A DNA stretch of 64,000 nucleotides from Laetmonice hystrix (Eukaryota), in assembly GCA_965235115.1 (NCBI GenBank), contig OZ249436.1, forward strand, positions 25,670,001 through 25,734,000, read 5' to 3'. This document shows, piece after piece, positions 1 to 64,000 of this stretch. The position numbers and the translations under genes were made by a program. Each line of letters begins with the position of its first letter. Position 1 is the stretch's first letter. The notes below the pieces were generated by a model. That model worked only from the letters and a program-made list of their open reading frames with translations, was not told where the DNA came from and searched no databases.

Positions 1-417
1 TGTATATACTCTTTCAATTGGCATCAAGATTTATGACGTAGCATGTCGTATTACGACATTGGAATATAAGCCTGAAGGCATGCAAGATAGAGTCATGGTT
101 ACTATTGAACACGAATAGGAAATCATGCATGCTGTTTACATTGACACCAATATTTATGACATAGCCTGATGTATGACGTCACCAAGATTTATGACGTAAC
201 GTGACGTATGATGTCATGATGATGTCTAGGACAGGTTATGCATTAGCCTTAGCCTAGCCTAATAGAAACCTGATTGGCCATTATGCTATATCAATATCAC
301 CACACCACGGTCAAATCTCCTTCATTTTCATGATTTATCATCACATGTCACATGACATGTGACATGTAACACCAAGGGATGGGCTCCATCGTTGTCAAAA
401 CAACGACAGGTCTAGTT
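1..417 (+). mobile_element. 3' part of a Helentron/HINE-like element (family A variant), running off the window start
   Basis: Degenerate core-repeat motifs (gagtcatggttactattgaacacgaatagga), then GGGATGGG (376-383), hairpin TCGTTGT-caaa-ACAACGA (389-406) and CTAG-TT (412-417). Confidence 0.7.
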
Positions 418-603
418 ATCCCATCCCCCATCAAGGGGATGGGATTTTGAAATTGTGTGGTTTCATCTTCCGTATTATTATCCCATCCCCCATCAAGGGG
501 ATGGGATTTTGAAATTGTGTGGTTTCATCTTCTGTATTATTATCCCATCCCCCATCAAGGGGATGGGATTTTGAAATTGTGTGGTTTCATCTTCCGTATT
601 ATT
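418..603 (+). repeat. Three tandem 62-bp HINE-A 5' heads (palindromic subTIR/IR)
   Basis: atcccatcccccatcaaggggatgggattttgaaattgtgtggtttcatcttccgtattatt starts at 418, 480 and 542. Confidence 0.95.
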
Positions 604-3600
604 CCCGTAGGTGTAGTAGTTAAACTCATTCTCTTTAGCATCGTATCTCGCTCATTTTTCAAGATAGCAATACAAAACTTGGTAGGCGTATTAAGGACGC
701 CAGAGAGAATTTGCAGTTTGACGCTTGACGTCATATGACGTCACGTCATGACGTTAATCGTGTTTTACGCATTGAGGCCATTTTCTAAAGCTCATATTGA
801 GAATTTCAAAAACGTCTCATGCCAAGATAATCAGGCAAGGGTATTGCCTAAATCTGACCCTTGCTTTGACCTTTGACCTTTAAGCTGAGGGAGAACTGGG
901 TCAGAGGTCACAAATCGGTTAAATTGATTCTTCTTCCCCATTTTTTGGTGAAACTTGACAATATGTGGTAGAAGCATTCTCCAATGTAAGCTCCACAAAC
1001 TGGTGCATCGGGTAAACAATTTGACGTATTTTCACTAAACCACGTGACTTTGAAGTTTTGAACTCGGGTCATTTTGAAAGGTCCTTGCTGTAACTTTTGA
1101 AAGATTTAAGACAGAGCCTTAATTGTTCATTAACTTTATAAAAGTGAATGTCTTCGTTAATAAAGTACCATAATGTTTGTATCACGAGACATGTGACGTC
1201 ATCTATGACGTCATCTTTCTGATTTATGTAACCGAACTTCTACGGGCTGTATCTTGAAAGGTATTACACATAGCCATATGAAAGTACATCTGTTGTAAAG
1301 TACATAGAGTCAGGTATACCACTGATTGTTCAATTCTTGTTCTCGAAAGGCATTATAGCCACAATCATAAGTTGTCATGTGTATTAGTCTTCACATATTA
1401 TAATGTTTGGCACTAGGATGGTTGGGGTCTCTGTATACACAGATCGCCCACTGTGCGTTCGCCGTTCGGCTCCAGCCGGGTCGGCAGAGTGTTATGTAAG
1501 TGCTACTGATAAGGCCCGCTGGTGTCGACTGCCCCAGTCCTCACAGTCAGGGTGTTGTTGGAGGAATCTGTACCCAGAACAACCCCAACTGAATGAATTA
1601 GCGGTGCTTTAGAGCTGTATGTGTAACTGTCTAATACATATTTTTTTGAATCTTATATTGGAGGAGAGCAATAAAACAAAACTCTCATGAAGGTTGTCTT
1701 CTTGAAGTTACAAAACAACTCTTGGCCAGCCAGGTTTAGTGAGCCAGCAGATTGATGTGAATAGATGTCACATTTCGGGCCGGTCGTCGGTCGTGACTAC
1801 TCCTCCTTTCCTCCAGGGTCAGGGTAGGTTTGGAGCATTAGGCCTATGTCTATTCAGAACTGACATAACTGAATTAGCTGTGATTTTGAACTGTAGGTAT
1901 AACGGTCTAATACATACATGTATATGTTTTTGAATCTGTTTTGTTTTGAATAGGAGTAGAGTTGAACTAGATATGTTGTGGAGTACTATAATGATTTTCA
2001 GAGGCCTGCAAGTATAACTGCTAAACGGGCGCTAGATAGTCCCATAGTTACTATTAAACATGAATGGAAAGATTATGTTCTTTCAATTGATACCAATACT
2101 ATTTATGTAGGGTACCGTGATAAAACATTCCCACATTCAGATACAGGTCCTGACATCTCCATCTTCAGCCTAAAAGGAAAATATTCTCAGACTAGCAACA
2201 CATGATCACTGGCTACACACTGATCATCGTAACGCGCGTTACGCTGATCCAAGATGGAGGAAGGCAGGTCTCGCTTCAACTAAAACTAGGCGTATTTCAA
2301 GCAGTTCCGCGTCTCTGATTCATCTGTAAGACGTCAGAGTTGTTTATTGTAATGGTGGCATCATGTTTGGTGAGCCTCGGCGCCTGAGATTGCCTAGAAA
2401 TCTCAAAAATCGCTCCGAAAATTTTCGCTGTGATACCCGTAACGCGGACAAGCATGTTGACAAATGATACCCGTAACGCGAATTATTGATACCCGTAACG
2501 CGACTCATTGCTGGTTAGCCTGCCATTCACTCGTAAGCTGTACTGCCTTTATTCTTCGTCTTTCAAGTAGAAAAACCATTCTCACCAGTTTTCGTTTGAA
2601 GGGAATTTAATTGTTTGTGTTATTTGAAATCTTGTGCAGGTTGTGGCAGAGTTTTTAACTTCATGTAGAACGGAGTACGTTAGCGGTAGCCACGCTCGCA
2701 AACGCGAATAGGCCTACTTCCAGCCTGTGGCGAGTTCCACTGCCAAAATAAACCACCAAATTCGCCACGCCTGCAAATTCCAGCTGTCTCCAGTTTATAG
2801 CCCAGGTCCTCCCCCCCCCCCCCATGCGCGCCTGATCCACCACTGACTGTGGTTGGAGCACGTGTGTCGGTGTGACATGTGGGTGGTCAGAGACCAGGGT
2901 GACCGACCCACCCGACCCGGTCTCTCCGTCAGGCCAGGCCAGCCGCCCGTATGCGTCTGTTCCCCCTAGTCTACTACGGACTACCCCAGGTCAGGCCGGC
3001 CCTCAGTACTGGCCCGTCTCCCCTGGGTCCAGTCCATCTGGGGTGAGTTTATGACAGATGCCAGTCAGCCTGTAGGAGTAATATAGGCCTAGTTTAATCT
3101 ATCCCGATTACCTGGCAGGCTGAGTGTACCAGGAGAGCACAGGCGACACATAGCATGGCTGAGGTCACATGGCATGAAGGTGGGGAGGCAGCTCGGCCGC
3201 TCAGTACGGGGGTCGGGGGTGTGAGGGGTGGGGGCTGTCAGGGGGGGATCGCTGTGATGAGAGGGTATTATAGCCTAGGTACCCGTCAATTTGGGCCAGG
3301 CCTCCTCTGAGGTGTAGGTGTACTGTACTGGATCCCAATATTCTTGCTGCTCAAGAGGGCCACTTGTGTAGAGTTATCCTCGAGATATAGGACAGCTTAT
3401 TCCCCCAAATATGTTCACTAAGCCCGCGTTGCAGAAGAAAATCTTAATGAAAATCGTATCTTAAATTTACGAATTCTGTCGAAAGTGTTTCAGAACAAAA
3501 AATCGTAAATAATGTTGTCGTAATATTTATGAAAGTTTTACGATATTCGTAAATATTTAAGACGACCTCAGACCTGGGCGTAACTTATACGATGCCTGTA

Positions 3601-4547
3601 ACCGCACGGACAGGCATGCGTCGCGATATCCAAATGAACGTCCAGATCCCTTTAATATTTACACTGAGGATGGTTTTTGCTGTTAATATCGAGGATTTGG
3701 CACAGGAATTCGGAAATTCAGAGTTTGCTACCAAAGAGAAACGAAATGGCAAGGGTCTATCACACCGTGAGAGGGTATGTTGTAGATGATAAGAAAATCA
3801 CAATTAATTATAATTATATCCGATTTTTTACTGAGAAAATTGTGTAGCCTAGTGCAAACAGTAATCCTCTCAGCCTTCGTTGTGGTTCTGTAAAATAGAT
3901 ATAAATAATCATTATAATAAAAATGTATAACTGATTGTTCTTTTGTAATATTTGGTAGCACTAGTGTAAGTTTTCAGACGGGTCTCACACTCATCTGAAG
4001 TTCGCTTTGCAGCAGTCGCACATACCGTCTCTGTTGATATTAAGATACCAACATTAATAGGTTGTTACATTCAATGTCAATGTCTAATAAACTTTACTGT
4101 CACAGAGACATAGAAAATATACACAGTCTATGAGCTCATAAGCTCTAAATACAACTCTGTACCAAAGGGTAGTGAAACTTAAAAGTTACTTTTCCCCAGA
4201 TTAGTTAAATCCTATCATAAGTGGACATGAAGCAATGGTCAAATTTATGGGGAAAAACACCAAAAAATATAAAACCAACTTTCCACGAAATGTTTGGGCA
4301 TGGGTTAGGGTTAAGGTCAAGGATAGGGATAGGGATAGTATAGGAATATGTTTTTGGGAGGTGTAGGGACTGAGGGTAGGGGTTAGGGATAAGGTCAGGG
4401 CCATGGATCTTTACTTTCCACCAAATTTCGTGGGGTTTAAGTTATCATGGGCGATATACCCATTGTTTAGTTGACACTTCTAGCGGCCATAATATTTAAG
4501 ATTTTAATTTTGTGTTTAACCATAGCAAGATGATAGATTAGTATCTA

Positions 4548-7190
4548 TGTTACGTGCCATCGGTCGATCTGACCCATCGGCCGATGGGTCAGACCCATCG
4601 GTGGATCGGCCAACGGGTGGATGCGCGGCGCGCCAGAGTCGCGGCCCATCGGCCGATGGGTCTGACCCATCGGTGGATGGGTGCCGATGGGTCTGACCCA
4701 TCGGTAAACCAGGAGACATGAAATGACATGAAAACCTAGAGGAGACAACCCCACACCCACCTCCTGTCCAGACCCCACACCCAGCTCCTGTCCAGACTTC
4801 ACACCCACCTCCTGTCCAGACCCCACACCCACCTCCTGTCCAGACCTCACACCCACCTCCTGTCAAGGCCCCGCACCCACCTCCTGTCCAGTCCTCACAC
4901 CCAGCTCCTGTCCAGACCCCACACCCAGCTCCTGTCCAGACCCCACACCCACCTCATGTACAGACCCCACACCCACCTCCTGTACAGACCTCACATCCAC
5001 CTCCTGTACAGACCTCACACCCACCTCCTGTCCAGACCCCACACCCACCTCCTGTCCAGACCCCACATCCACCTCCTGTCCAGACCCCACACCCACCTCC
5101 TGTCCAGACCTCACACCCACCTCCTGTCCAGACCTCACACCCAGCTCCTATCCAGACCTCACACCGACCTCCTGTCCAGACCTCACACCCACCTCCTGTC
5201 CAGACCCCACACCCACCTCCTGTCCAGACCCCACACCCACCTCCTGTCCAGACCCCATACCCACCTCCTGTCCAAACCTCACACCCAGCTCCTATCCAGA
5301 CCTCACACCGACCTCCTGTCCAGGCCCCACACCCACCTCCTGTCCAGGCCCCACACCCAGCTCCTGTCCAGACCCCACACCCACCTCCTGTCCAGACCCC
5401 ACACCCACCTCCTGTCCAGACCTCACAACCACCTCCTGTCCAGACCCCACACCCACCTCCTGTCCAGACCCCACACCCACCTCCTGTCCAGACCTCACAC
5501 CCACCTCCTGTCCAGACCCCACACCCACCTCCTGTCCAGACCCCACACCCACCTCCTGTCCAGACCCCACACCCACCTCCTGTCCAGACCCCATACCCAC
5601 CTCCTGTCCAAACCTCACACCCAGCTCCTATCCAGACCTCACACAGACCTCCTGTCCAGGCCCCACACCCACCTCCTGTCCAGGCCCCACACCCAGCTCC
5701 TGTCCAGACCCCACACCCACCTCCTGTCCAGACCCCACACCCAGCTCCTGTCCAGACTTCACACCCACCTCCTGTCCAGACCCCACACCCACCTCCTGTC
5801 CAGACCTCACACCCACCTCCTGTCAAGGCCCCGCACCCACCTCCTGTCCAGTCCTCACACCCAGCTCCTGTCCAGACCCCACACCCAGCTCCTGTCCAGA
5901 CCCCACACCCACCTCATGTACAGACCCCACACCCACCTCCTGTACAGACCTCACATCCACCTCCTGTACAGACCTCACACCCACCTCCTGTCCAGACCCC
6001 ACACCCACCTCCTGTCCAGACCCCACATCCACCTCCTGTCCAGACCCCACACCCACCTCCTGTCCAGACCTCACACCCACCTCCTGTCCAGACCTCACAC
6101 CCAGCTCCTATCCAGACCTCACACCGACCTCCTGTCCAGACCTCACACCCACCTCCTGTCCAGACCCCACACCCACCTCCTGTCCAGACCCCACACCCAC
6201 CTCCTGTCCAGACCCCATACCCACCTCCTGTCCAAACCTCACACCCAGCTCCTATCCAGACCTCACACCGACCTCCTGTCCAGGCCCCACACCCACCTCC
6301 TGTCCAGGCCCCACACCCAGCTCCTGTCCAGACCCCACACCCACCTCCTGTCCAGACCCCACACCCACCTCCTGTCCAGACCTCACAACCACCTCCTGTC
6401 CAGACCCCACACCCACCTCCTGTCCAGACCCCACACCCACCTCCTGTCCAGACCTCACACCCACCTCCTGTCCAGACCCCACACCCACCTCCTGTCCAGA
6501 CCTCACACCGACCTCCTGTCCAGGCCCCACACCCACCTCCTGTCCAGACCCCACACCCACCTCCTGTCCAGGCCTCACACCCAGCTCCTGTCCAGACCCC
6601 ACACCCACCTCCTGCCCAGGCCTCACACCGACCTCCTGTCCAGACCCCACACCCACCTCCTGTCCAGACCTCACACCGACCTCCTGTCCAGACCTCACAC
6701 CCACCTCCTGTCCAGACCCCACACCCACCTCCTGTCCAGACCCCACACCCACCTCCTGTCCAGACCCCACACCCACCTCCTGTCCGGACCCCATACCCAC
6801 CTCCTGTCCAGACCTCACACCGACCTCCTGTCCAGGCCTCACACCCAGCTCCTGTCCAGACCCCACACCCAGCTCCTGTCCAGGCCTCACACCGAGCTCC
6901 TGTCCAGACCCCACACCCAGCTCCTGTCCAGATCGGTCACCATTGTTGTCATGTTTGATTACCCCCGGATTTACCCGCTGTTATCACTACTCAAATTTTT
7001 TACACACATTTCAAGTTCTGTTAAAGTCTTAAAAGTTAGGGTGCCTACGGCTAAACGTTTTTTTCTTCATGATAACTACAGTATAGTCCGTTTTATGTAT
7101 TGCATCCATGTGTTCCGTTTACCAACCACCCATCCATCGATGGGTCTGACCCATCGGCCGATGGGTCAGATCGACCGATGGCGCGTAACA
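4548..7190. mobile_element. TGT...ACA TIR element with 4-bp TSD (Ginger-like non-autonomous) carrying a minisatellite
   Basis: The ~59-bp TIR tgttacgtgccatcggtcgatctgacccatcggccgatggg... is inverted at 7132-7190. TCTA lies at 4544-4547 and 7191-7194. Confidence 0.8.
4748..6932. repeat. 24-bp minisatellite (~91 copies, CAGACCCCACACCCACCTCCTGTC) with higher-order duplications
   Basis: Direct reading. Variant-unit patterns recur at +960 bp (identical ORFs 4863-5138 and 5823-6098) and at +336 bp. Confidence 0.97.
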
Positions 7191-7457
7191 TCTAGATATG
7201 ATATATATTTGAATAAAAGATCTATAGAGAACTGCTATACCTAGGCCTATATACATTGCCGTCACATCTATAGTAGGCACTACCAGAATTTGCAACTTCA
7301 TAAATGAGAAACACCTCACAAATCCTTCATATTTAGCGAATAGCAGAGTCTAGATACAGTGACCAGATATCTCCTCCCAGGCTTCCCTTTTCACTTCTTC
7401 TGCAGTCCCGACATGCTTGGATGCAGATCGGTCGTCTTCCTTTGCTTCTGATGATGG

Positions 7458-8628
7458 CATGGGCGTCGAATACTTTGAAAATGTGGTGGGGGGACCAGGG
7501 GCGGATCCAGGATTTTTTGCAGGGGGGGGGGGGTCAGAAGGTTCCCGCGCCGGGGGGGGGGGGCTCCGACTGAAAATGTTTGGGAATATAAAAGGCCATA
7601 GATGCTATTTCCCGGCTTCTCTGCATCAAACCGAAGAGTTTTGGGTACCGACCTTTTGGTCAAAATTAATGTATTAATCAGTGGGGGATCCAGAGGAGCT
7701 CAGCCCCTTTAGATTTTCCTTTTTTGTATGAAGATGCCTTAGTACAGCTAACATGAAATCATGCCGAGCGTAGCGAGGATAATTTCTTTTTGTAGGTGGG
7801 CCCCACCCCAATATCAAAATCCTGGACACCCCACTGATTAATGCATGTTTATTAGAAATAGAGGGGGGAAATAACCGAGAGAAGGGGGGGTCACGACTCC
7901 CCCCCCCCCTCCGATTCCCTATCTAAAGCATGCAACATGCATGCGCAGATGGATCAGGGGGGCGCCTGCCACAAGCATTTGACAATTAATTAAAATTATG
8001 TGCACTACATAGGCGGCGAAAGATATTCACAGGTGGGGGGCAAAGACCAAATCATAGGTCCCAAGTTCCAAGATTCGAAATGCTGGTCATGCGAGCGGGG
8101 TCTGGGGGCCCTTCCCCCGAAAAAAATTAAAAATTAAAGTGCCAAATACGCGTTTTCCTGGCATCGGGGATCAAACTCCAAGGTCTTAGAGGTAGCTAAA
8201 AATAACATTTTTTTAATTAGCAAAAATCGCACATCTATCAGATATGGCTATAGATCTAGACAACTCGATGTGGTTAAGCAAAGAAAGTGCCTGACGCCTG
8301 ACATCTCCTGCCACCTTGAGCTAGGGGGGCAAAAATATGCTTTCCCCCCTCGCCCCCTCCCCCACAAACTCACTCATTTTTAGCCCTGGTTTGGCATTTT
8401 AATTAACGAAAGAGACGGACAACGTCATGCCAACATATCGGATCCAGTTCAACGCGCTTATAGTTATACTGCTTAGGGAATCAGACCTGCTGTCTGCTGA
8501 ACCCACCAAGGGTTGGCTTGTGGGGGTGGGGGGTGGGGGCATGTCAATTGATATGATGTCCCCCGCCCTGTATAAAAAGTGGGAGGGACATGTCCCCCCC
8601 CCCCCCCCCCCACCTTTCGACGCCCATG
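7458..8628. mobile_element. hAT-like MITE with further nested G/C-run MITE fragments
   Basis: TIR catgggcgtcgaa (7458-7470) pairs with ttcgacgcccatg (8616-8628). The 8-bp flanks GATGATGG and GAAAATGG match at 6/8. Confidence 0.5.
7679..7836. mobile_element. 158-bp MITE (CAGTGG termini) with 6-bp ATTAAT flanking duplication
   Basis: cagtgggggatccag pairs with ctggacaccccactg. ATTAAT lies at 7673-7678 and 7837-7842. Confidence 0.6.
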
Positions 8629-10576
8629 GAAAATGGTGGCCGCATCATCAAAACATAAACATCCGTTCCGCAAAAACAACAGATAAACCGGAGCACATGC
8701 CAAGACCTGTGCGTATTCAGGTGTCACGGCACAAGTTAACATTTCCTTAATCAATATACGAGAATTCTCGTAAAATATTTACGATTTTATTCGTAAATTT
8801 AAGATGTGCAATTTCAGATATACGAAAGCTGTTCTGAAACGCAATTTACGAATGTTCGCAAATTTTTTCGTATCTTAAAATTTACGAGGATTCTCTTATC
8901 GCAATTTAGGACAAAACTTCTGCAACGCGGGCTATAGGCCTACACACAGCTGGCAAATGAAAGTACATGTACTTTATATTATACAGAGAAATTAAGACTG
9001 TATAATACATGTATAATGAACTCTGGTTCTAAACCTAAATAAAAAACATTAAAACAACTGTGGCTAAAACTTTTTCCCTGTGGCTAGTTCTTTTCCTCAG
9101 TTGTTAGCCACTGTGGCTAATACCCAAAATTCACTAGCGTACTCCCTGTCGGAGGAGTCAGGGTGCTCTACCCCGGGGGACTGGGGAAGGACAAAGCATC
9201 TCGATCTCTCATGGTGCCTGCCAGGCAAGTCTTAGATTCGTGACCCCGCCCTGGGGTCCACACACACTCTGTATGGTAACACCTATAGTATAGTATAGTA
9301 TCACACACGCTGTTAATCCGGGCCCTATTATATACGTGTACCTCATGGTTTTACCTTCATACTGAAGTAGGTAATGCTCATTACAAAGTTGAGATTCATT
9401 ATCAGATCATGAGCCGATGTTGAAAGTCGTCTACTCGTCTACGTAAAAACCTTTAGGCCTAGGCTCAGTGAAAGGTTTAGGTGCCGCGTTACGCCTATCC
9501 TGTCACCAAATTAAACTTGCGTTACGGGGATCAGCGCTGCGCGTTGCGGGTATCATCGCCAAATCTTCTGCGTCCATTTTCTCTTAATCTACGCCCGTCT
9601 AGGACCCCAAACTGAGACAGACGGCAGGCACACATTGTTATCATGATATTCAGATGTTGTTTTATGTTGTTGATGCACCGTAGCCCTTGTAACTTGAACA
9701 AAAACACGCGAAGCGAGCATCGGGATCGTCCATCTTGGATCAGCGTAACACGCGTTACGATGATCAGTGTGTAGCCAGTGATGATGGCATTATCGTTAAA
9801 AGCTAGCTCGTGTACCATATTGACTGGGGGTGGGCCATATTGACCAACTACCTGGGCCATATCAACCAGGCCATTATCGGTCATGGGCCATATCGACCGG
9901 AGACCATAATGATCATATTATGGAGGCATTGGAATCCCTGGAAAAATTATCTTCCGATGACTATGATAATGACAGCATTGGAATCTCTTCGACAGGGTTC
10001 CCAGCCACTCTAAAAATCAGGGAAAACCTTTAAATCCAGTCAAGGAAAACTCGGGATTTGGGGAAAAACATATAAGATCAGGGAAAACTCAGGGAATTTG
10101 ACAGTGACCCAGATGGCAAAGGTATTCGTCAGTTAATTCCATTTGGCGGGCGCATCTTTAGTGTGTCCGAAGTTGTATCCATTGACTTATTTGTATCGTG
10201 GCTTTTTAATGTTGATAAGAGTGTGAAGAATACACCTGTCCGTACCGTTATAATCGGTTATGCTACCTATATTAAACACAAAATATATCTCATGGAATTT
10301 TGGAAATTTCTCAGGGAATTCTCAGGAAAAAAAAATTCAGGGAATTTGATGTTTACAAAAAGCGGGGAACCCTGGTTTCAATTGACGCCAAGATTCATGA
10401 TGTACAGCAGCGTGCTGTCTGACATCATAATGACATTATTGGCATCTATTAAGGAAAGGATTATAACTTGTGATAGGTGCAAGATGCAGCCATGTTTCAT
10501 GTTGAAATCGAGTAGAACGGGAACGCCGCAGGGGGATGGGATTCATAATGTGGCCATCGCCACATCCTATCTAGTT

Positions 10577-12068: not shown

Positions 12069-12127
<59 letters not shown>

Positions 12128-14784: not shown

Positions 14785-14873
14785 ATCCCATCCCCCATCA
14801 AGGGGATGGGATTTTGAAATTGTGTGGTTTCATCTTCCGTATTATTCCCGTAGGTGTAGTAGTTAAACTCATT

Positions 14874-20860: not shown

Positions 20861-20906
<46 letters not shown>

Positions 20907-27743: not shown

Positions 27744-27790
<47 letters not shown>

Positions 27791-28258: not shown

Positions 28259-28309
<51 letters not shown>

Positions 28310-29990: not shown

Positions 29991-30009
29991 ATACCTTATC
30001 GTCATCGGT

Positions 30010-35300: not shown

Positions 35301-35314
35301 ATAGTCACTCTTAA

Positions 35315-46002: not shown

Positions 46003-46136
46003 CATCTATTCCCTACAACACTATGTGTTGTCCTCGGTAAAATCCTAATTCTACTTCAACCTTTACCAAGGTAAGTCTCGTATAATTGTAATATTTTCCC
46101 GAGGACAACACTACGTGTTTCCGGAAATAGATGAGA
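46003..46136. repeat. DIRS internal complementary region (ICR)
   Basis: 46003-46096 is the reverse complement of 45745-45838, and 46093-46136 is the reverse complement of ~50834-50877. Confidence 0.92.
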
Positions 46137-46220
46137 TGTTTAGAGCAGACCGGTAAGGTCAAAGGCTTCCTTCATCGCTCAATAAATAACAAACTCCTTC
46201 AATTCATTTTATTATTTTAT

Positions 46221-53035: not shown

Positions 53036-53536
53036 TGTTATGTTGTGAACATGGAAGGGAAGACAGACTTGTTGTGTGCTGAGGTTTTATTCGTCACGAT
53101 AGACAGTCGCGTCGTGCGTTCTCGTCTCTGTCTATCTCTCTCTCTCTTTCTATTACATTGTTGTACTATATATACTAAAATGCTTATCATTAGTCAGGTG
53201 ATTACAAATGGGTCCTCTCTGTAGTGGAGGAGGGTGCATGATACTTATTTGTTTGCATAAGGAAACGTATGTGGTCATGAAAGATTGGAGCTGACATGGT
53301 GTGCTTACATTACTGCGGGAGGTGTTCTATCTTTCCTTAGATGTAATGATTATGCTTCATTACACAAGAGCTCGATTACATGACAGTGGTATGTGTGTTT
53401 GGACTTGTTCCTTTGATAGTGTGGTTATCTCTAACCATGACTGAGAACAAAGGTCTGATAACAGTGTCCAGGCATGTCCATGTTATCTGGTTGGTAAGTA
53501 TAGTCTGTTGTGTAAAGTTCAGATAAATATACCACA
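53036..53536 (-). repeat. 3' LTR (501 bp)
   Basis: tgttatgttg...tataccaca, with no difference from 62804-63304 seen by eye. Confidence 0.97.
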
Positions 53537-54753
53537 TGCTCTTGGTTTCAAGAAAAATTTATGATAGTGAATTATTTCCTAAAAGGAATTTGTGAACTCT
53601 TAAATTTTTATCATCAGTCCATCGGTTGAATAAATATACCACATGCTCTTGGTTTAGCATTATGATCGTAAATATAATTGAGCATAAATCCGAACTCTAA
53701 TTGATAAAGTCACTTAAAATGTGATTGCGATAATTGGCAAAACGTCTGCTGGCAAGAGTCACTCAAGGTTTGGAGTTTATGAGTCACTTATAGTTCGGGT
53801 TTGAGGTCCACCGTTTTACATCACTCTGTCATCCATCTATGGACGATCCCTGGTGACTGGACTTGATCGTGAAACAGTCTCTGAGAGTGGTCGTTATTAT
53901 CGAGAAGTGTTACTTGCGACCTCTACCACGGGATGACTTTTCATCCATTCGCACTGATTATTTTGGTGCATCTTAATAAAATGTTGACTGCGATGTCCGC
54001 AAAGTAAAGACGTTTCACACACTTGCAGCACCCTCTTTATCGTTGATGGCACGTTTGGAGGGTGTTATTAACCTCGGTACTTGCTGTAGTTTTACGGCTT
54101 GCGTTGCTGCGCCCTCAACTGTGGCCTTCTTGGTCGGTGTTTCTGGTAGGTGCGTTTGGTGTTTCCGACATACACCAAGGGATGCATCTGGGGATGGCGT
54201 TTGGTGTATGTTTATGCTGATGGACTTGGCCTTCGTTGCTGTCTGTCGTTAGCCAGGAAGTCCATCAGGTTGCGCTTGATCTTCGATGATGGTTTTTGTT
54301 TCCACCGTTGCGTTCGTTACAGCGTTACAAACTTCTTGTGGGTTTGCGCTGAACTGCTGCTTTGGTGAGCGGTTCTGCGGTGTCATTCTCAGCTTGTTTA
54401 ATTTTCATTTCTGTCTTCTCCTTCCGGCTTCAGGATCTTTTGTTCAGTGACTGTCTTCTGCTTCTGTTTTTCGCTTGTCTCTGCATTTAGACTCAGACCA
54501 CAAAGCATTGATACATGCAAACAATATGAACACCAGATGGCTGAGAGCGGTCATGCCTGCAGAAACAACTTAACTGTGTGGAACATTTAGAGGTTATATA
54601 TATATATATATATATATATGTATCTATAATTACCTTAAAATTTGCTAAGTATAGTTCTATCTACGGTGTTGCTCGGCTCACAAACAGTTTTGAATCTACG
54701 AACTAGGGTACTCCTGCATTTTTAGTTTTACTTTGCCATACTTTATATGTTGC

Positions 54754-55587
54754 CTAATAAATATCCTGCCTTTCCATTGCAGTGTGGCAACTCTCACTTC
54801 CTGAATCTTCTATCGGACTGCTGGGTCCACTTAGTGCTATCTGGATTGTCTCCCCTGTGTTCTGTTTGGGTTTGAATCTCTGAGTTCGGGGAACCGGTTG
54901 GAAAATCCCGCTGGTATCGGTAAATTCCGAGTGACTCGAGACTTCGACCCAGTTCTCCCCTGATACTAGAATGACTTTCACCACTTTCGTTCGTCGGATC
55001 AATCTTTTGAACTTCCCGTACGAGCATAGTGGCAGTCTGACATAACTAGGAAACGTAAGTCTCCCTATTTCGTCTGCTGATATCGTGATCGGGGTCCAAT
55101 CGACCTTCACACATGGGGTCACGATTCGTCTTTTGAAGCTTACTGAGCGTATTTCAGTGATTTTCTCTGTTTTGATACTATTTAATGCTGCTGGAATAAT
55201 TGTGACTCTGATGTGGGCATACTCATGTACTCCGTAAAGGCACAGGTATACCTCTGTTTTCAGTTGCTCCAGTACGGCTTGTGCGCGTGTGGCACATTTG
55301 TCTAATTGCCTGCATTGAGTAACCCACTGCTGAATGATGGAATATGACGCGAGCATTAATGATAGTATGATTAGTACAGTTCTCCACAGGTCCGTTGTCT
55401 GGGACACGACCGTTGTGGTGGTTGGTATTTGGGTTGCCGGGAGTGTGACCTCCAGTGCCTTGACTTTGTTCAGCATCAATAAGACATATGCAACATTTCT
55501 TTGTACTGCGTTAAGTTTTACCGCTAGTGTTATTATTATACCTATTTCGATTATGTTGATACAGATCGTGGTGGTCAAATACGCCAT
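54754..55587 (-). CDS. env-like membrane protein ORF3 (frame open upstream to 55770)
   Basis: Lies after pol. Hydrophobic segments TICINIIEIGIIITLAV, VAYVLLML and VLIILSLMLASYSII, plus a Thr-rich linker. The in-frame upstream extension carries NFT/NLS/NHS sequons. Confidence 0.55.
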   Translation of the reverse strand: MAYLTTTICINIIEIGIIITLAVKLNAVQRNVAYVLLMLNKVKALEVTLPATQIPTTTTVVSQTTDLWRTVLIILSLMLASYSIIQQWVTQCRQLDKCATRAQAVLEQLKTEVYLCLYGVHEYAHIRVTIIPAALNSIKTEKITEIRSVSFKRRIVTPCVKVDWTPITISADEIGRLTFPSYVRLPLCSYGKFKRLIRRTKVVKVILVSGENWVEVSSHSEFTDTSGIFQPVPRTQRFKPKQNTGETIQIALSGPSSPIEDSGSESCHTAMERQDIY

Positions 55588-55770
55588 CGAGTGGTCGTCC
55601 CGGGTTGTTAACCACGGAATGGAATACCAGTTTTCCTCAGTTGTCGGTGGCCCCTGAAGCGAATGGTTCAGTGCCTGCTCAATGTCATTAATTTCGTAGG
55701 CTTGAGCATTCTCAATCTTGGTATATTTTGATAGGTTTCGTGTGACCCTTGTGAAGTTTGGGAATTCTGT

Positions 55771-56550
55771 TTATTGTGCCTGGTCGATGGTGTTTGACGT
55801 CCTTCCCCTTTGTTTCGTTGTCGATACAAGCGTGGTTGTCTACTTCTATAGTATGTACACTAAACTAACTGATAAATTGTTCTGCACATGACATATACTA
55901 TCATTTAGTTGGGTAATCAACCATCAGGGTGTTACCTGACGCTACTTAACGTCCATTGTGCGTCTGTGGCATAGGTGTGCGCCATCGGACATGTGATGTC
56001 GATAACGCTGGCGGCTTTAAGTGTTGCCGATATGGCAACGTTTTGGCAGTGTGTGTCCTGCGTATTCGTGCGTTTTATCTCGGATATGGTTACCTCATAC
56101 CCACGATGCGAATCTCTGTAAATATGACTCGGTTCAACATGAAAAGCATTAGCCAGCTTTGTTACATTGCATTGTGCAGCGATTCTCGATAGTTTGATAA
56201 CCCTGGGGTGCACTGAAGTGTTGTTCAGTGAGGCACAATAGTCTTACCCACTTGATGGTTATACATAATAATGAAGTTACGCACAATCCCACAGCAACTG
56301 AGACTTATCATTTTGAAGTCTAGACGGGTTGATAGCTGCTGTGTAATTAAGCGTGTGTACGCCAAATGTGCTCCCACCACGGAGCGCGAGTGATCGAAGT
56401 AATGAGTTTGAGAATCGTGCATAGGTATTCTTGAGATGACGTCGTGAAACTGATATCACGTTAACTGTGTTATTGTCATCCCGGCCTAGTAGTGGCTGGC
56501 TGCGTTAGTGGTTGTGGTACCTACTACGCAATACATGTGTTATCATCATT
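55771..56550 (-). pseudogene. Possible disrupted ectodomain of the env-like gene
   Basis: Short Cys- and sequon-containing ORF fragments in different frames (55932-56213, 56225-56422, 56277-56459) between the pol stop and ORF3. Confidence 0.35.
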
Positions 56551-56609
56551 AAACTAACTCCGCATATGCATTAGCTACTTTATATCCTAGAAACATTTAT
56601 ACATAACGC

Positions 56610-59600
56610 CTAAAATGCGTAAAACCGATGAGCAAACCTTTTCCTAGATCCGGTTATCCTCAGATCTGGGTCGTTATCCAACGCTTTTGCCCATGGCAGT
56701 ACATAAGGATGGTCCGCTGTGCGCATCCAAAAGTTGTGATATTCCTCACTTGGCGACCTCAACAGTAGTTGTAGGGCTCCGTCTTTATACCTTGCTTTCT
56801 TGATCTCCAGTTCCATAGATTCCTTTGATATTTGTTCTGTCATTCTGAAAATCGTTGCCTTCGTCCTGTCCTTAAGTTTGGTAGGTGCTGCCAATCTGCC
56901 ATTGGCTTCTGCGTGTTGTACCTGTAAGTTGATGTTCACTGGCTCCCCTTGAATTGTAAAGTTTAAGGCGTTTTGTGGCATGTTGGTGACCTTTTCCCCT
57001 TGCTCGTTAGTTACCTGTATGGTGGGTTTCTTTAGAATGGGTTTCAATTCGTTGACATGGTTGACTGTTCCAGTTTCTGTTCTGATCCACGCGACTTTCA
57101 GTCTGGCCACATGAAATACTCCATTTATCTGTTGGCCCTCGAGTGTTTGCAGAATAGCGTGGTTGCGGTCAAGCATGGATTTGATTGATAGTGGTCCAAT
57201 GAAATCCATTCGGATTTTCTTAGAGTTTGTCTGTAAGGCGCTATGCGACGGTGACAGCAGATAGATAAGCATACCTTCTGTGAAGATTGGTGGGTTTTTC
57301 ACTTTCTTCAATTGCGTTTGCGCTTGTTTTGTTTGGTTCCTGGCATGTAAGTCCAAAACTGTCTTTGAAACCTTCTGCAGTCTCTCCTTCATTGACTCCA
57401 CATAGTCTACGTAATTTCTGCTGATCGCATCTGCTGGTCCGCATTCGAACGCAGATGGTGGGTTCCTTAGATAAACCAAGTAATAGGGACTGTATCCACT
57501 TAATGATGGGCTGGCGAAAGAGTTCATAGCAAATGCTACGGCATTGCAGAACAAGTGCCAGTTCTTCCCGTTTCCAGTAAGACAGGAGGTCAAGAAGCTT
57601 GATACTGTTCCCACATAACGTTCAGACTTGTTTGACTTGTGGTTTCCCACAGACACAAATCTTTGGTCAACCTTTAGAGCGTTGAACACGTATGCGATGA
57701 CTTGGTTGTTGAACTCTCTTCCCTCGTCGCAAATGAACCTCTTGAACGGCCCATGTATAAGAATGCATTTTTGTAGGATCGCTTCAGCGACTGATGGCGC
57801 GTCCTTGCTTTGTAGTGGTACTAGAATTGTATATCGGGTGACCGCGCATACTAGGACTAATATGTAGCGGTGTCTGCTATGTGATTCCGGCATTACTTTC
57901 AGGTCACAGTAAACTGTTTCCATTGGTGCGTATTCCGTTGGGATGTTCACCTCGAACGGTCTGTCGGCGTTTATGGGGTGTTTTCTTGTTTGACAGGTGT
58001 GACAAGCTTTGACGTAGTCAGTGATTCTTTGATACAGCAATGGGAAGTAGTACTTTTTCTTGATGGTCAGTGCTACTCGGTTGATACCTTGATGGCACGC
58101 TAGCAGTGAGTCATGGTGCATTGAGATGATCTCGCTCACCATTGATCTTGGAACAGCTAGATTTACTCTGATTTCTTCTGTGTTCGGTTTCTGCGTGAAT
58201 CTGAACAAGACTCTATCTATTAACACATAGTTTTCTGCTTCTAGTAGCACTTTCTTTGCTGCTTTCTTCGTGTTTGGTAATAGGCCCTCATCTAGGTATA
58301 AGTGAATGTCTTTAAAGTCTGGACAGCTTGCCTGTTCCTTTGCAATCTCCCTTTTGGTTTGTGGCAGATGATAGTCTCTTAATACCTTTTGTTTGATTCT
58401 CTTTAGTAGTTGGTTTATACTTGCTTGTTTTGGGGTCCGGCCAATCTTGATGTTTTGATCCGAAAGATTAGAAATGAGCTGAGTTGGCTGGCGGTAGAAA
58501 TGGTCTGGTGGTGACGTATGGGTTTCGAAGATTTCTGTCTCACTTGTTTCAGGTGTTTGTGCTTCAATCGGGATGTGTTTTAATGGTGTTTGTGTGTCTA
58601 CTAGTCGGTGTGTTTGAGCTTGCTCTCTTGTGTTGTATCTTGGGAATAACAGAGTCATATCGTTATTTACTATTGGCTCTTGTTGTTGCGTAACACGTTC
58701 GGTTGTAGCTTTGTTTGCCGTTGGTGTTGGGGTGTTATTTCTCACGCTTTTCCTGGCTTTATTTTCGGGTGATATGTCTGCTGGAGGTATTGGTGGCATA
58801 GCGATGTTGTTTCTTCGCGCCATGGACCTCGTGATTGGGAATGCAATCGTGTCTTCCTGGTTTGTGTCGTCTACTGGCGGTGGGTTTCGCGACAAGTAGT
58901 CTGCGATAACTAGACTCGATCCCTTTTTGTAACCCACTTTTATGCAGTATCCACTCAACTTCTCAAGCAGCCTTTTTATCCTGTCCGACGTGGGCTCTGC
59001 CTTGGATTTCATTATCCTTGGGATGGCGGCGTGATCTGTGTAACACTCAAAATGAGTGCCTTTTACCAGGTGTCTGAATGCTGTTACTGCTATCGTAAGA
59101 CCTGTTAGCTCTAATTCTGTGATTCCATAGTTCGATGCAGCTTTAGGAAGAGCTTTAGAGTAGTAGGCTATAAGCCTTTCTGATCCGCCCTGGACTTGCC
59201 ACAGGCTCGCTCCTACTCCGATTTTTGAAGTGTCAGTGTACAGTCTGAAGAGTCCCTGGCTGCGTGGCATGGTGAGAATGGGTGATTCTTGTAAGAGTTT
59301 TATAATCTTGTCGTAGTTATCCTGTGCTATTTGGTCCCATACAAAGTCGGCCTTCTTTGTTGCAATGGAGTGCAGCGGTTGAAGTAGAATTTGGAGATGA
59401 GGCAAGTACATGCTGAGATACGATACTTTGCCTATGAATCCCTTCAACTTCCGTTTTGTTGTTGGAATCGGCAACTTCTGTATTGCTTCCGTTCTCTCCA
59501 TGAGAGCTCGGATACATGGTTGTTTGTTATGTATGATAATCTCATGGCCCATGTATGTGACTCGTTCTCTAAACAACTTGGCTTTTGCAGGTGAAATTTT

Positions 59601-61379
59601 GAGTCCGTATTTCTGTAGAACTGCAAGGATCGTTTCAACGTGTTGGTAGTGATCTTTGGTCCCTTTTGAGTAGATTATCAAATCATCCATGATTCCTATG
59701 CAAAACTGGTTGCCCTCTTGAATTTCGTCTAAGATTCGGTTGATTCTGGTTTGGAACTCTGCTGGACTTATGTTAAGGCCCATTGGTAGTTTCTTGTAGA
59801 AGTATGTTTTTCCACCAAAGTATGAAGCAATTCCTGTGTATTGGCGGCATCTTTCTGATAGATTCAAACAATGATAGGCTTCTTTAAGATCTAGTACTGA
59901 CAGTATTTGAGCTTGGGAGTGTCCTATTATCTGTAGCGTGTCTTTGATAAGAGGAAATGGCAGATTCCTCTTCACGATACGCTGGTTGAGATGTCGGAAA
60001 TCGGTGACTAGTCGGTATGTCTTTGTGTCTTTCTTCCTGAGAAGCATAACTGGACTCGAGTACTGGGAGTGTCCTTCCTGCAGAATTCCCATCTTGACTA
60101 GTTTGTTAAGTTCTTTGTCAATGATTGGTTTTTCCGTCGCCGGAACGGTAAATGGCCTGATGTAGAACGGTTTTGTGTCGTTTAACTGAAAGTCGACTGT
60201 CATGTCGGTTTGGCCTACCTCTGAGTGTAAACTAAGCGCGTTTTTGTATTTATTTAACATTGTTCTGACTTTCATTTTTCCCTCCATGTCAAGTACACAG
60301 TGCTCAAATTTAATGTCTCTGTTTATAATTTCTTCGTCAAACATTTTAAGTCGGTCGTCTGTGTCTTCTAGAAAAGGGTATTTCTGTTTCTTATATTCGT
60401 ACAGAGTGTCTCGCTCTAGTGGTTCTCCGTCTTGTCCGGTCTTATCTTTTATCGGTTCTGGTGTTGGTCTCTCCGAGCGCGCAGTGCATGCATAGTAGTG
60501 TACAGTGGTGCTTGCTGATGTTATCTCAGCGTGTGATACTGCCGTATACATGTTGGTCATTGCTCTTGGTTCCACAGTTGCCACGGGTTTATCTCGTCTA
60601 ATCTTGATTGGCGTGTTTGATGGATTCCGTACGACAATTGCGGCTGTTGAATTTCTGAACTGTACCAACATTAGCTTGGATGATAGGTTTTCGAGGAATT
60701 TTGTGGCTTTGATAAGAATGTTGGAATTCCTTAAAAAGTGTGGTAGTTTCCCCTGTATCGTGATGCTCCTTGTCTGATGGGGTTGTAGGATGGTATCACA
60801 AGATGGTTTTAGGAGAATGGAACTCGATTTAAATTTCAGTCTGTGTGTCCTGAACTCAAGTTTGGCGTCGATTTCTCCCATCGACGGGCTTCCTAATACC
60901 ATTGATATTCCCCCTAGGGTATTGACAACTAGTGCGGTCACTAGAAACTTGTGGTCTTGTATGTTAATAGTTACGTCAATAGCATGGTCCGTTGTTAGAT
61001 ATTCTCCGTTCCCTACCTTGAATCTCATCTGTTTGCATTGGCGTTTTGGTAGTTCTGACAAGTATCTCGACTCATTTATGGTATTAGCACAGATTAATGT
61101 GTGTGATGCTCCTGAATCAAAAAGTATTGTGATGGTTTCGCGATTCGGTAGTTTTGCTGATGTCATGTTTCTGGGATTAAGTTCGAGGCATATTGTTTCA
61201 TTGTTGTTCTGGTTTTGTGCGCTGTTAACATGTACTAATGATGCGTCTTCATTGGGATCAAATGTAGTCGACTGTTCGTGAACTTTAAGTACCGTCGTGG
61301 TTTCGTCGTCGGTTAACGTGTTGGTTCTAACCTCTAAACTATGTGCGTTATCCGTTTCTGAATTTGAGTTGGTTGGCAA
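56610..61379 (-). CDS. pol: Gypsy pol polyprotein (protease, RT, RNase H, integrase); frame open up to the slippery site at ~61490
   Basis: LFDSGAS (PR); DFRHLN, LDLKEAY, LPMGL, IMDD (RT); YTDTS, TDH, ADYLSR (RH); H..H..CHTC, CDL, CDEGREF, SERY (IN). Confidence 0.97.
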   Translation of the reverse strand: MPTNSNSETDNAHSLEVRTNTLTDDETTTVLKVHEQSTTFDPNEDASLVHVNSAQNQNNNETICLELNPRNMTSAKLPNRETITILFDSGASHTLICANTINESRYLSELPKRQCKQMRFKVGNGEYLTTDHAIDVTINIQDHKFLVTALVVNTLGGISMVLGSPSMGEIDAKLEFRTHRLKFKSSSILLKPSCDTILQPHQTRSITIQGKLPHFLRNSNILIKATKFLENLSSKLMLVQFRNSTAAIVVRNPSNTPIKIRRDKPVATVEPRAMTNMYTAVSHAEITSASTTVHYYACTARSERPTPEPIKDKTGQDGEPLERDTLYEYKKQKYPFLEDTDDRLKMFDEEIINRDIKFEHCVLDMEGKMKVRTMLNKYKNALSLHSEVGQTDMTVDFQLNDTKPFYIRPFTVPATEKPIIDKELNKLVKMGILQEGHSQYSSPVMLLRKKDTKTYRLVTDFRHLNQRIVKRNLPFPLIKDTLQIIGHSQAQILSVLDLKEAYHCLNLSERCRQYTGIASYFGGKTYFYKKLPMGLNISPAEFQTRINRILDEIQEGNQFCIGIMDDLIIYSKGTKDHYQHVETILAVLQKYGLKISPAKAKLFRERVTYMGHEIIIHNKQPCIRALMERTEAIQKLPIPTTKRKLKGFIGKVSYLSMYLPHLQILLQPLHSIATKKADFVWDQIAQDNYDKIIKLLQESPILTMPRSQGLFRLYTDTSKIGVGASLWQVQGGSERLIAYYSKALPKAASNYGITELELTGLTIAVTAFRHLVKGTHFECYTDHAAIPRIMKSKAEPTSDRIKRLLEKLSGYCIKVGYKKGSSLVIADYLSRNPPPVDDTNQEDTIAFPITRSMARRNNIAMPPIPPADISPENKARKSVRNNTPTPTANKATTERVTQQQEPIVNNDMTLLFPRYNTREQAQTHRLVDTQTPLKHIPIEAQTPETSETEIFETHTSPPDHFYRQPTQLISNLSDQNIKIGRTPKQASINQLLKRIKQKVLRDYHLPQTKREIAKEQASCPDFKDIHLYLDEGLLPNTKKAAKKVLLEAENYVLIDRVLFRFTQKPNTEEIRVNLAVPRSMVSEIISMHHDSLLACHQGINRVALTIKKKYYFPLLYQRITDYVKACHTCQTRKHPINADRPFEVNIPTEYAPMETVYCDLKVMPESHSRHRYILVLVCAVTRYTILVPLQSKDAPSVAEAILQKCILIHGPFKRFICDEGREFNNQVIAYVFNALKVDQRFVSVGNHKSNKSERYVGTVSSFLTSCLTGNGKNWHLFCNAVAFAMNSFASPSLSGYSPYYLVYLRNPPSAFECGPADAISRNYVDYVESMKERLQKVSKTVLDLHARNQTKQAQTQLKKVKNPPIFTEGMLIYLLSPSHSALQTNSKKIRMDFIGPLSIKSMLDRNHAILQTLEGQQINGVFHVARLKVAWIRTETGTVNHVNELKPILKKPTIQVTNEQGEKVTNMPQNALNFTIQGEPVNINLQVQHAEANGRLAAPTKLKDRTKATIFRMTEQISKESMELEIKKARYKDGALQLLLRSPSEEYHNFWMRTADHPYVLPWAKALDNDPDLRITGSRKRFAHRFYAF

Positions 61380-61448
61380 TCTAGTGGGTGTGGTTTTTTG
61401 TAATGGATGTGGTGAATTATGTGTTGTGGTGGATTTGATTGTGTCTTT

Positions 61449-61496
61449 GGAAACAGACAGACTGGCGTCCTCTGGCTGTCTCCCCTCTAAAAATCC
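61449..61496 (-). promoter_or_regulatory. Predicted -1 ribosomal frameshift signal G_GAT_TTT plus downstream stem-loop
   Basis: The heptamer at 61496-61490 sits immediately before the gag TAG. Pol is in the -1 frame and stop-free from there. GGAGACAG can pair with CTGTTTCC downstream. Confidence 0.75.
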
Positions 61497-62551
61497 TGTT
61501 CCTGGCCGTGTTGTAGGTTATCTAGTTTGTTTGCTAACATATAACATTGTCTCCACGCATGTCCTTGTTTGTGACAGAAGTTACATATGATGTCCTGCCT
61601 ATGGTTCCTATCGGCGTGTGGTGTTGCGTCTCTCTGTCTTGTTACCTTCTCAGTAGGCCTTTCTCGGCTCTTCGACTTATCTCGGCCGTCATATCGACCT
61701 CTGGACTCGTATCGCTCCCTTGATTGATATCTACCTCGCGACTCGTGTTGGCCTCGGCCTTCGTGTCGGCCCCTACTCTCATGTCGGCCTCGGCTACGGC
61801 TGTCATACCGACTCCGGCTATCATAGCGGTTTCTACCCTCATGTTTATTTGTGTTCCTGTAACGCCCTCTAGATTGGTCTCTGCTCCTATCTACCTGTTG
61901 TTGGTTCCCTACCATAGCCATCAATCTGTCCTGTCCTAGCGTTAGTTCCCTTACACAGTGTGTGAGGTGGTCTATTTCTGTCTTTTGGTTTGTTCTCTCC
62001 CCTTGTGTGCATAATATGTTTCCTGCTACCATCGGCTTTTCCCTCTGTAGATCAGCATAGCGCTGTGCCCTCGCTGTTAGATCGTTCAGTTGTACTGCCC
62101 CGCTCATTACCACGAATGTTTTCATCTCAAACGGTAACCCGTTCAGGAACTGTTCCCTGACTAGTTCTGGCCCCAGGTTCAGCCTCTCTGCTAACCTTCT
62201 TAGCTTGTTCGAATATCGCTCCACGCTATCTGGTGGTGTCCACCTGAGCGACCTAAAAGCTTCCAAAGACGCTTCTCTTGACGTTAGTCCTGAGAAATAT
62301 AGTGTGAAAGCATCCCTTAAGTTTGCAGGGTTATTAAACTGCTTATTCGCGATCCATTCTCTGGCTTCACCACTGAGTGATAGTTTGAACTGGTTAACCT
62401 TGTTGTTATCGTCGTATTGATGCGCTATACAATAGTCCTCCCATTTCAACCAATGACTGTACGGGTTTGAATCACCTTCCCCTGTAAAAAGTCTGGGAAA
62501 CAAATCGTGTAACCTTGGGAGATACCCATGTTGTTGATTCGGGTTGGCCAT
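61487..62551 (-). CDS. gag: Gypsy gag (capsid + CCHC zinc knuckle)
   Basis: FTGEGD..HW, LSGEAREW, QFLNGLP, SRGR(H/Y)E repeats and CNFCHKQGHAWRQC. Confidence 0.95.
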   Translation of the reverse strand: MANPNQQHGYLPRLHDLFPRLFTGEGDSNPYSHWLKWEDYCIAHQYDDNNKVNQFKLSLSGEAREWIANKQFNNPANLRDAFTLYFSGLTSREASLEAFRSLRWTPPDSVERYSNKLRRLAERLNLGPELVREQFLNGLPFEMKTFVVMSGAVQLNDLTARAQRYADLQREKPMVAGNILCTQGERTNQKTEIDHLTHCVRELTLGQDRLMAMVGNQQQVDRSRDQSRGRYRNTNKHEGRNRYDSRSRYDSRSRGRHESRGRHEGRGQHESRGRYQSRERYESRGRYDGRDKSKSRERPTEKVTRQRDATPHADRNHRQDIICNFCHKQGHAWRQCYMLANKLDNLQHGQEQDF

Positions 62552-62785
62552 TGCCTTTCTTTGTTTTGTGAGCTTTGCACCGTCTATCGAACTACCTGTA
62601 CGTTACAACTGTTAAACTTGTTTTGACTACTTGTTTTGTTTTGTTTTTCACCTTGCTTTTCGTCCACACGGTTATTGCTTACTGACATGAACCTCCGATG
62701 CCCTGGTTGAACATAAAGCTAGCACATATCAAAGAATGGGTCTTACCATTTTGTTGTCGTGCAGCTCATTGTCGTTCGAAGCAGA

Positions 62786-62803
62786 TCCGGTTGTTCTCCA
62801 CCA
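62786..62803 (-). promoter_or_regulatory. Primer-binding site, tRNA-Ala-like
   Basis: TGGTGGAGAA immediately after the 5' LTR is complementary to a tRNA 3' end ..TTCTCCACCA. Confidence 0.7.
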
Positions 62804-63304
62804 TGTTATGTTGTGAACATGGAAGGGAAGACAGACTTGTTGTGTGCTGAGGTTTTATTCGTCACGATAGACAGTCGCGTCGTGCGTTCTCGTCTCTGTC
62901 TATCTCTCTCTCTCTTTCTATTACATTGTTGTACTATATATACTAAAATGCTTATCATTAGTCAGGTGATTACAAATGGGTCCTCTCTGTAGTGGAGGAG
63001 GGTGCATGATACTTATTTGTTTGCATAAGGAAACGTATGTGGTCATGAAAGATTGGAGCTGACATGGTGTGCTTACATTACTGCGGGAGGTGTTCTATCT
63101 TTCCTTAGATGTAATGATTATGCTTCATTACACAAGAGCTCGATTACATGACAGTGGTATGTGTGTTTGGACTTGTTCCTTTGATAGTGTGGTTATCTCT
63201 AACCATGACTGAGAACAAAGGTCTGATAACAGTGTCCAGGCATGTCCATGTTATCTGGTTGGTAAGTATAGTCTGTTGTGTAAAGTTCAGATAAATATAC
63301 CACA
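62804..63304 (-). repeat. 5' LTR (501 bp)
   Basis: Direct repeat of 53036-53536. Confidence 0.97.
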
Positions 63305-63318
63305 CTACTGACGGGAAT

Positions 63319-64000
63319 AACTAGACACGTTGTGGCGATACCACAATTGATCCCATCCCCGGGGAGTCACGTGATATATGACTTCCTATTCCTGTTCAAT
63401 AGTAACCATGGCTCAATCTTTCACCGTTTACGAGTTGGAGGCTTAGGAAAATAATTTTAATATCATTATAATCTCATACGTCATGATCCTGCTTTCATGC
63501 AGGCTCAGATCCAGTACCGCAAGAAAGGAGGGGCACCAAAGGTGCAAGGCGAACATGGGCGCGGGGGGGGGGGGACTTGAATTTAGAAAGTCAAAGAACG
63601 TTACTTCTGGAGCTAGATGTGAAGTTTTTCAAAGTATTTCAGGCGCATGTAGGGGTCCGGGGGTTGGACCCCCTCTCCTGCTCCCCCAGAGCATAGATTC
63701 ATTTTTCCTTAGATTCAGCGGGACACCATCGAACGAAGAGGTGCAAAGCATTCTGCCTATTTTAAACTGGTTGAGTGATGAATAGGCCTACACAAAATAT
63801 AGTGCACTAAATGGGTCCATAAAAGGCTTCTAATTTAAAAAAAAAACATTTCGGCGACCACCCTGCTGAAAATCCTAGATACGTGGCTGTATTTAGACCT
63901 AGCCTAACAATAATGTCAATTCTTCAAAAAGAAAGAGTGCAGATACGCCCCTGACATGTCGAAAGGGATCATAGAGATCTACTGCATGGTATATCTACCT
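63319..64000 (-). mobile_element. 3' end of another inverted HINE-A-like unit
   Basis: The minus strand reads ggggatgggatc + hairpin ttgtgg-N5-ccacaa + cgtgtCTAGTT (CTAG 63321-63324). A core-repeat motif lies at 63375-63415. The right boundary is uncertain. Confidence 0.6.

Follow-up and report, generated by a model that had tools for sequence, protein, structure and literature searches.

We describe a nest of self-inserted transposable elements (TEs) in the genome of Laetmonice hystrix. The stretch analysed (contig OZ249436.1, positions 25,670,001 to 25,734,000 of the forward strand; 64,000 nucleotides (nt), hereafter the window) is repeat-rich eukaryotic DNA in which copies of one HINE family, here called family A, are packed one within another. 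The structure is better read as a nest of insertions into the 5′ ends of resident hosts than as a tail-to-head chain, and it was probably built by HINE self-insertion at a reusable site near the element's own 5′ end, together with block moves, deletions and infill by other TEs. The nest proper lies on the plus strand at 412-44268 and measures 43.9 kb, of which 17.1 kb is foreign and 26.8 kb is family DNA and cargo. In the minus-strand arm at 44274-63945, 16.0 of 19.7 kb (81%) is foreign. An earlier note on this DNA had described the whole window as a domain of more than 60 kb formed by a single TE family. That extent does not hold, given that self-comparison and empty sites identify eleven blocks of foreign elements within family copies, amounting to 33,072 of the 64,000 bases (52%).

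By anatomy, family A is a HINE, that is, a non-autonomous HLE2 (Helentron) element. The 5′ end carries a subterminal inverted repeat (subTIR) and an inverted repeat (IR), an (AGT)n microsatellite follows it, core repeats come next, and the 3′ end consists of a subTIR and a stem-loop. All of these modules were found, together with insertion at TT, which bears out the Helentron/HINE identity proposed earlier and agrees with the definitions given in the accessible text for HINE/DINE-1 (PMC4067079; PMC2374699; PMC7492417) and for HLE2 (PMC11417382). One empty/filled pair for family A shows that insertion at TT duplicates nothing of the target apart from the Ts. The bodies form two clades with full support, alpha (A1-A5) and beta, which are ~61–66% alike over the first 450 nt. 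Central tandem repeats form arrays of 19 copies of 146 bp and 2.9 copies of 158 bp, while A1, A2 and A4 are without long arrays. Among 73 frames of at least 75 amino acids (aa) outside the retroelements and the minisatellite, Pfam gave three weak hits below cut-off, in keeping with a lack of coding capacity. An Rfam scan gave no hits. A canonical Helitron (HLE1; 5′ TC start, A|T target, no terminal inverted repeats (TIRs)) is ruled out by the TT-ATCCC start, the TT target and the subTIRs; the hairpin and CTAG end is the sole feature that family A has in common with HLE1.

The 3′ ends (tails) share the motif GGGATGGG-(22-36 nt)-CTAGTT, which occurs ten times in the window and not once in 200 order-3 Markov simulations of it. 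The CTAG lies at 412, 10571, 14779, 18671, 22783, 26128, 36158, 38301 and 43391 on the plus strand and at 63321 on the minus strand, so that all ten 3′ ends listed in the earlier note were recovered. Each tail has the 3′ subTIR GGGGATGGGAT or a near variant and, between it and the 3′ end, a stem-loop (DNA hairpins of -6.3 to -8.9 kcal/mol). The earlier note had counted at least three hairpin subtypes and several body subtypes; besides the alpha and beta bodies there are four tail types, six tails being 94–100% alike over the last 50 nt, two identical and two singletons. The ten 5′ ends (heads), all on the plus strand, are at 418, 480, 542, 10577, 14785, 14874, 26134, 26196, 26260 and 38307. 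Each has the 5′ subTIR ATCCCATCCCC folded back onto the IR (hairpins of -9.8 to -14.5 kcal/mol). Seven heads are alpha (96–100% alike) and three beta (93–98% alike), with 82–84% likeness between the types. An inner pair, TTCCCGT...ACGGGAA, lies just inside the head (599-610) and the type-A tails (at approximately 10521, 14727, 18619, 22731, 36106 and 38249); perhaps older subTIRs were enclosed by newer ends and survive as this pair.

Joints and the landing site

The nest and the minus-strand arm are made up of the following parts.

376-415, plus strand: type X tail (subTIR, hairpin and CTAG) of an element beginning left of the window
416-477, plus strand: alpha head H1, a 62-bp unit; proposed host together with the rest at 43395-44268
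478-539, plus strand: alpha head H2; proposed host together with the rest at 36162-38304
540-10574, plus strand: HINE A1 with head, (AGT)n, core and tail, split by a 7.6-kb TIR element; uninterrupted paralog at 36162-38304
10575-14782, plus strand: HINE A2 copy 1, interrupted at 12226-12990 by 765 bp of foreign DNA
14783-22786, plus strand: host H5, 5′ part from A1 and 3′ part from A2, fused at 20504/20505; A3 interrupts it at +89
14872-18674, plus strand: HINE A3 with 19 x 146-bp repeats, in ACTCA|TT of an A1 host; empty site at 600-650
22787-26257, plus strand: headless beta body, beta tail and two beta heads; candidate circularly permuted element
26258-36161, plus strand: HINE A2 copy 3, split by a family-B complex and two miniature inverted-repeat TEs (MITEs)
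36162-38304, plus strand: headless alpha body A4 with tail, remainder of a split host
38305-43394, plus strand: HINE beta B2 with head H10, body and tail; contains a 750-bp MITE and a 1.1-kb LINE-like fragment
43395-44268, plus strand: headless alpha body A5, ended by fusion with the minus-strand arm
44274-63945, minus strand: type D tail (63321), headless beta body and more beta pieces; two retroelements fill most of it

The sequence behind the tails is family DNA in all ten cases and never unique flank, as had been noted before. Five tails are followed by a head, four by TTATTCCCGT, the body start, which in intact copies comes directly after the head, and the remaining one (18671) by body position +89. 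Seen from the other side, five of the ten heads are preceded by a family tail, four by the +60 TTA tract of another head and one by +89, all co-oriented. Three kinds of joint are thus observed (head-head, tail-head and tail-body), and every head lies at a family end or less than 100 bp from one. The five non-tail head sites all read TNA|TT, as do those of both family-B heads, unlike the TAG|TT context of the tail-head joints. The five body-followed tails are better read as the right edges of nested insertions. Self-insertion is demonstrated directly once, by A3 (14872-18674) within an A1 copy: the empty site ACTCA-TT-CTCTTT is present at 600-650, and the filled site has TT on either side of A3. 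To this extent the earlier proposal that the family inserts into its own termini stands; the target it named, the 3′ CTAG-TT, gives way to the host 5′ end (TNA|TT at +60 or +89) as the better reading.

The 5′ ends are a small part of the available target. TT sites within the first 100 bp of elements make up ~2.7% of the 4,640 in the family DNA of the plus-strand arm, and the clustering of insertions there gives p ~1e-8 for five independent events, a figure to be taken as indicative, because some dependence between the events remains. The TNATT motif alone cannot account for this clustering, because 385 of its 407 sites lie away from 5′ ends and none of those carries a family-A head.

That new copies instead target the resident 3′ CTAG|TT and so form a tail-to-head chain, as the earlier note had it, we consider quite unlikely. 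Heads do stand directly behind half of the tails, mostly with another subtype, and Helitron transposase cleaves end junctions precisely (PMC5876387), both of which fit such targeting. It leaves unexplained the headless host remainders behind the other five tails and the host 5′ sequence before five of the ten heads, the non-tail sites are all TNA|TT whereas the tail offers TAG|TT, and repeated use of one host site yields identical tail-head joints. Because the sequence left of the cut is kept, a host site can be used again, and tail-head joints arise without any 3′-end targeting; at these joints themselves the two processes cannot be told apart. The subtype differs across four of the five tail-head joints, the one at 26128 being the only same-type joint. 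The neighbours are therefore not concatemers of one element, and a rolling-circle concatemer is ruled out, in line with the earlier rejection of single-element rolling-circle read-through.

An origin without targeting beyond TT, in which an insertion-tolerant, repeat-rich region is shaped by unequal crossing-over, by rolling-circle read-through and by the 62-bp head slipping from one TTAT repeat to another, appears very unlikely to us. Such a region is suggested by the fusions at 20504, 23749 and 44268, which indicate local rearrangement, and by the acceptance of at least 11 foreign inserts; HINE clusters and end bypass, as a source of tandem Helitron clusters, are discussed in the available text of PMC4067079. 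The unlike subtypes at four of the five tail-head joints and the clean new insertion of A3 at +89 speak against it, and foreign elements landed along the whole length of the bodies whereas family heads are found solely at 5′ ends. At the last of the fusions (44268/44274), the truncated plus-strand A5 is joined tail-to-tail to a truncated minus-strand beta copy, which marks an inversion or deletion between two nests.

Contigs of a single sample, sequenced in four runs and possibly the source of the window itself, were compared with 18300-27350 except 22787-22828. Among the contig pieces listed, none spans this stretch, as would be expected if reads of a high-copy family had been stitched together via shared ends. 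We hold an artefact of this kind to be extremely improbable, since substitutions as well as inserts differ from copy to copy, the inserts come with target duplications and with empty sites inside the window, and the joints are base-precise at TT. The A1 and A2 segments are matched by contigs with 0–1 differences at depths of ~1,700–4,900, and the 3′ part of A3 at 97–318; these depths are uncalibrated as measures of copy number. Both A1 and A2 are accordingly young subfamilies with many copies. At the contig joints the MITE-free and unfused A1/A2 forms are the common ones, the unfused at a depth over 2000, and thus the fusion at 20504 looks local. The tail pattern had no matches in public metagenome, genome and viral contig collections; the sole match to the head pattern (L001, among metagenome contigs) was rejected as chance, being a lone hairpin between gene-like sequences with no other likeness to the window.

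The mechanism that we favor, 5′ self-insertion, would run as follows. A Rep-helicase, supplied in trans by a presumed autonomous partner, would move the non-autonomous HLE2/Helentron-type HINEs, and single-strand transfer would join the element at TNA|TT with the shared TT as the sole change. In a resident copy, the reusable site would be a short run of (TTA)n that stands ~60 bp downstream of the copy's 5′ hairpin (in one case the site is at +89). An insertion at this site would separate the head of the host from its body, leaving the first orphaned and the second headless, and repeated use of the preserved site would stack whole elements tail-to-head in one host. Most likely, a transposase bound at the adjoining subTIR hairpin would nick the same strand at whichever T-rich site lies closest; the uniform orientation would follow because the target motif is one-sided. 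End bypass, circles or unequal exchange could move blocks afterwards, later deletions would fuse copies (20504, 23749 and 44268), and other TEs would fill half of the region.

The block at 22787-26257

Several results weigh against the favored account of 5′ self-insertion. The joint arithmetic requires hosts with at least three TTA, and only two of the six single intact heads qualify. The insertion events are not independent if blocks have moved. RepHel is not found among the 73 window frames scanned with Pfam. In the contig comparison, a 1.9-kb contig (X2 record 9, depth 97) seems to extend ~1.4 kb past an A3-type tail into sequence unmatched to the compared stretch at 90%, and some genomic tails probably have flanks other than family DNA. 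When the parts are treated as brackets, with split heads opening and headless bodies closing, the order never underflows; 42 of 126 random orders do likewise, which is not significant. Strict bracket pairing yields a head/body type mismatch in three of four pairs.

Without the block at 22787-26257, three of three pairs are type-matched and no bracket is left open. The block has the order body-tail-head-head, as would result from opening a beta element at the +60 site that it carries, and contains the sole same-type tail-head joint. Judging from this arrangement of sequence, it is possibly one circularly permuted element, the footprint of a circle. The A2 copies that flank it differ at 6 of 2,102 columns when microsatellite columns are dropped, and the third A2 copy (copy 1) has 15 private differences over the same columns; with the microsatellite kept, the numbers are 8 and 28 of 2,276. 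The closeness of the two flanking copies lends weak support to a block move, because near-identical contigs are abundant and similar copies may have arisen otherwise than by duplication on the spot. A composite circle, in which A2 lies inside beta, could have been copied from the inner A2 origin, or recombined in via A2, which would place a permuted block between A2 copies. Circles are intermediates of Helraiser (PMC5876387) and have been amplified for FoHeli1 (PMC5148889), according to the accessible parts of these papers. Tentatively, and with more doubt than confidence, we suggest that the family carries its own preferred landing pad beside the transposase-binding hairpin and that the window keeps a reintegrated composite circle, beta having been opened at the pad and copied all round from the inner A2 origin.

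Self-insertion could also have proceeded without permutation, with multi-headed elements moved as units (the FoHeli model) and the three headless bodies paired with alpha, alpha and beta heads left of the window. Heads H1-H3 are mutually 98–100% alike and H7 and H8 98% alike, as expected of such units, and elements with multiple 5′ termini transpose in Fusarium (PMC5148889, in the text available). This version has to assume, besides four orphan heads, that three heads follow one another unseen in a given order, whereas one block move balances all parts with matching types, and we judge it unlikely.

Foreign inserts and a second HINE family

The larger foreign elements are listed here.

2207-9780, no strand assigned: non-coding TIR element of 7.6 kb, CACTG...CAGTG, 5-bp duplication ATGAT; empty site near 37753
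28203-33861, plus strand: second HINE family (family B), subTIR GGGGAGACGT, (TCTT)n, self-nested near its 3′ end
40252-41342, minus strand: LINE-like 3′ fragment, 148-aa frame without Pfam hit, (TTGAGT)n tail
45748-50885, minus strand: DIRS-like tyrosine-recombinase retroelement in a beta body; Pfam RVT_1, Phage_integrase and weak Dam; inverted terminal repeats
53036-63304, minus strand: Gypsy-type long terminal repeat (LTR) element in the (AGT)n of the minus-strand beta copy; identical 501-bp LTRs, 4-bp duplication CTAC

Family B also inserts into itself. Its self-insertion is co-oriented, ~107 bp from its own 3′ end, at ATCA|TT. For family B, one empty/filled pair, with a one-base difference, was found. 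Within the same complex, at 32034, lies an eleventh, divergent family-A-like tail with the subTIR GAATGGGAT, which the earlier note had missed. It is preceded by 145-bp repeats 68–81% like the family core and followed by the 3′ region of family B, not by family A, landing 35 bp from the spot of the family-B self-insertion.

We take the element at 2207-9780 to be Transib-like by the rule of CACTG ends and a 5-bp duplication, and the superfamily names of the small foreign inserts are likewise assumed from TIR and duplication rules; the fragment at 40252-41342 is presumably LINE-like. Inside 2207-9780 sits a second TIR element (4542-7198), whose minisatellite repeats a 24-bp unit 91 times and leaves each of the three plus-strand frames open. 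Two adjacent MITEs lie at 35007-35840, one with a 10-bp duplication and the other a 530-bp near-perfect palindrome in TTAA. The DIRS-like element has open gag-like, reverse transcriptase/RNaseH (with a weak methyltransferase-like hit) and tyrosine-recombinase frames, and a perfect 94-bp inverted repeat at its left end with matches to the right end. In the Gypsy-type element, a very recent insertion, the gag and pol frames are open; a third frame of 338 aa (54754-55770) has hydrophobic stretches and no Pfam hit and is possibly env-like.

Known systems and the meaning of a self-carried site

The element type, TT insertion, clustering and 5′-end self-insertion are already in print. HINE/DINE-1 elements (Thomas, Vadnagara & Pritham 2014, PMC4067079; Yang & Barbash 2008, PMC2374699) share with family A the 5′ subTIR and IR, microsatellite, central repeats, 3′ subTIR and stem-loop, and TT insertion, whereas a fixed landing site in the own 5′ end and multi-level nests were not found in the accessible text of either paper, and in family A the tail terminates in CTAG. 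Cg_HINE of Crassostrea gigas (PMC7492417) and bivalve DTC84/Pearl (PMC3879986) have the modules, 11-12-bp subTIRs, satellite-like repeats of ~145-160 bp and TT sites in common with family A. Some of their copies insert into other repeats, but the available text describes these families as dispersed and self-nesting was not found in it, while family A is nested.

There is also a likeness to FoHeli1/2, Helitron2 elements of Fusarium oxysporum (Chellapan et al. 2016, PMC5148889), for which the accessible text reports repeated 5′ termini of 31-85 nt ascribed to self-insertion, composites, circles and a TNAT preference close to the TNA|TT seen here; in Metarhizium, it reports three Helitron2 copies in tandem, which it explains by insertion into a 5′ end. 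The FoHeli elements differ in being fungal, with few termini per locus at varied positions, whereas in the present nest the +60 site dominates, 44 kb contain ten heads, the hosts are preserved along with their remainders, and one copy appears permuted. Double insertion at one target (McGurk & Barbash, bioRxiv 10.1101/158386) likewise reuses a preserved target and gives tail-to-head dimers. As far as the text available goes, that case concerns elements that make target site duplications, one family and host DNA; here the target is element-borne and the subfamilies differ. Nothing closer was found in the accessible parts of PMC13085455, PMC12001565 and PMC3879986. A literature search, with most subscription papers outside its reach, returned no fixed self-carried target in animal HINEs and no permuted reinserted Helitron circle, nor, in the texts accessible to it, a biochemical answer on Helentron/HLE2 target choice beyond TT.

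A fixed self-carried site with base-precise joints is a defined substrate for testing target choice. Annotation tools that join each end to its nearest partner fail on nests such as 412-44268. If the permuted block is real, it would be a fossil of a circle intermediate; if the reading of a reintegrated composite circle is true, it would provide evidence, from the genome itself, for replication of nested Helentron circles from inner origins, their permuted reinsertion and the shifting of blocks of several kb between nests. A self-carried site would also explain how such elements accumulate to form large domains without genes, at little expense to the host.

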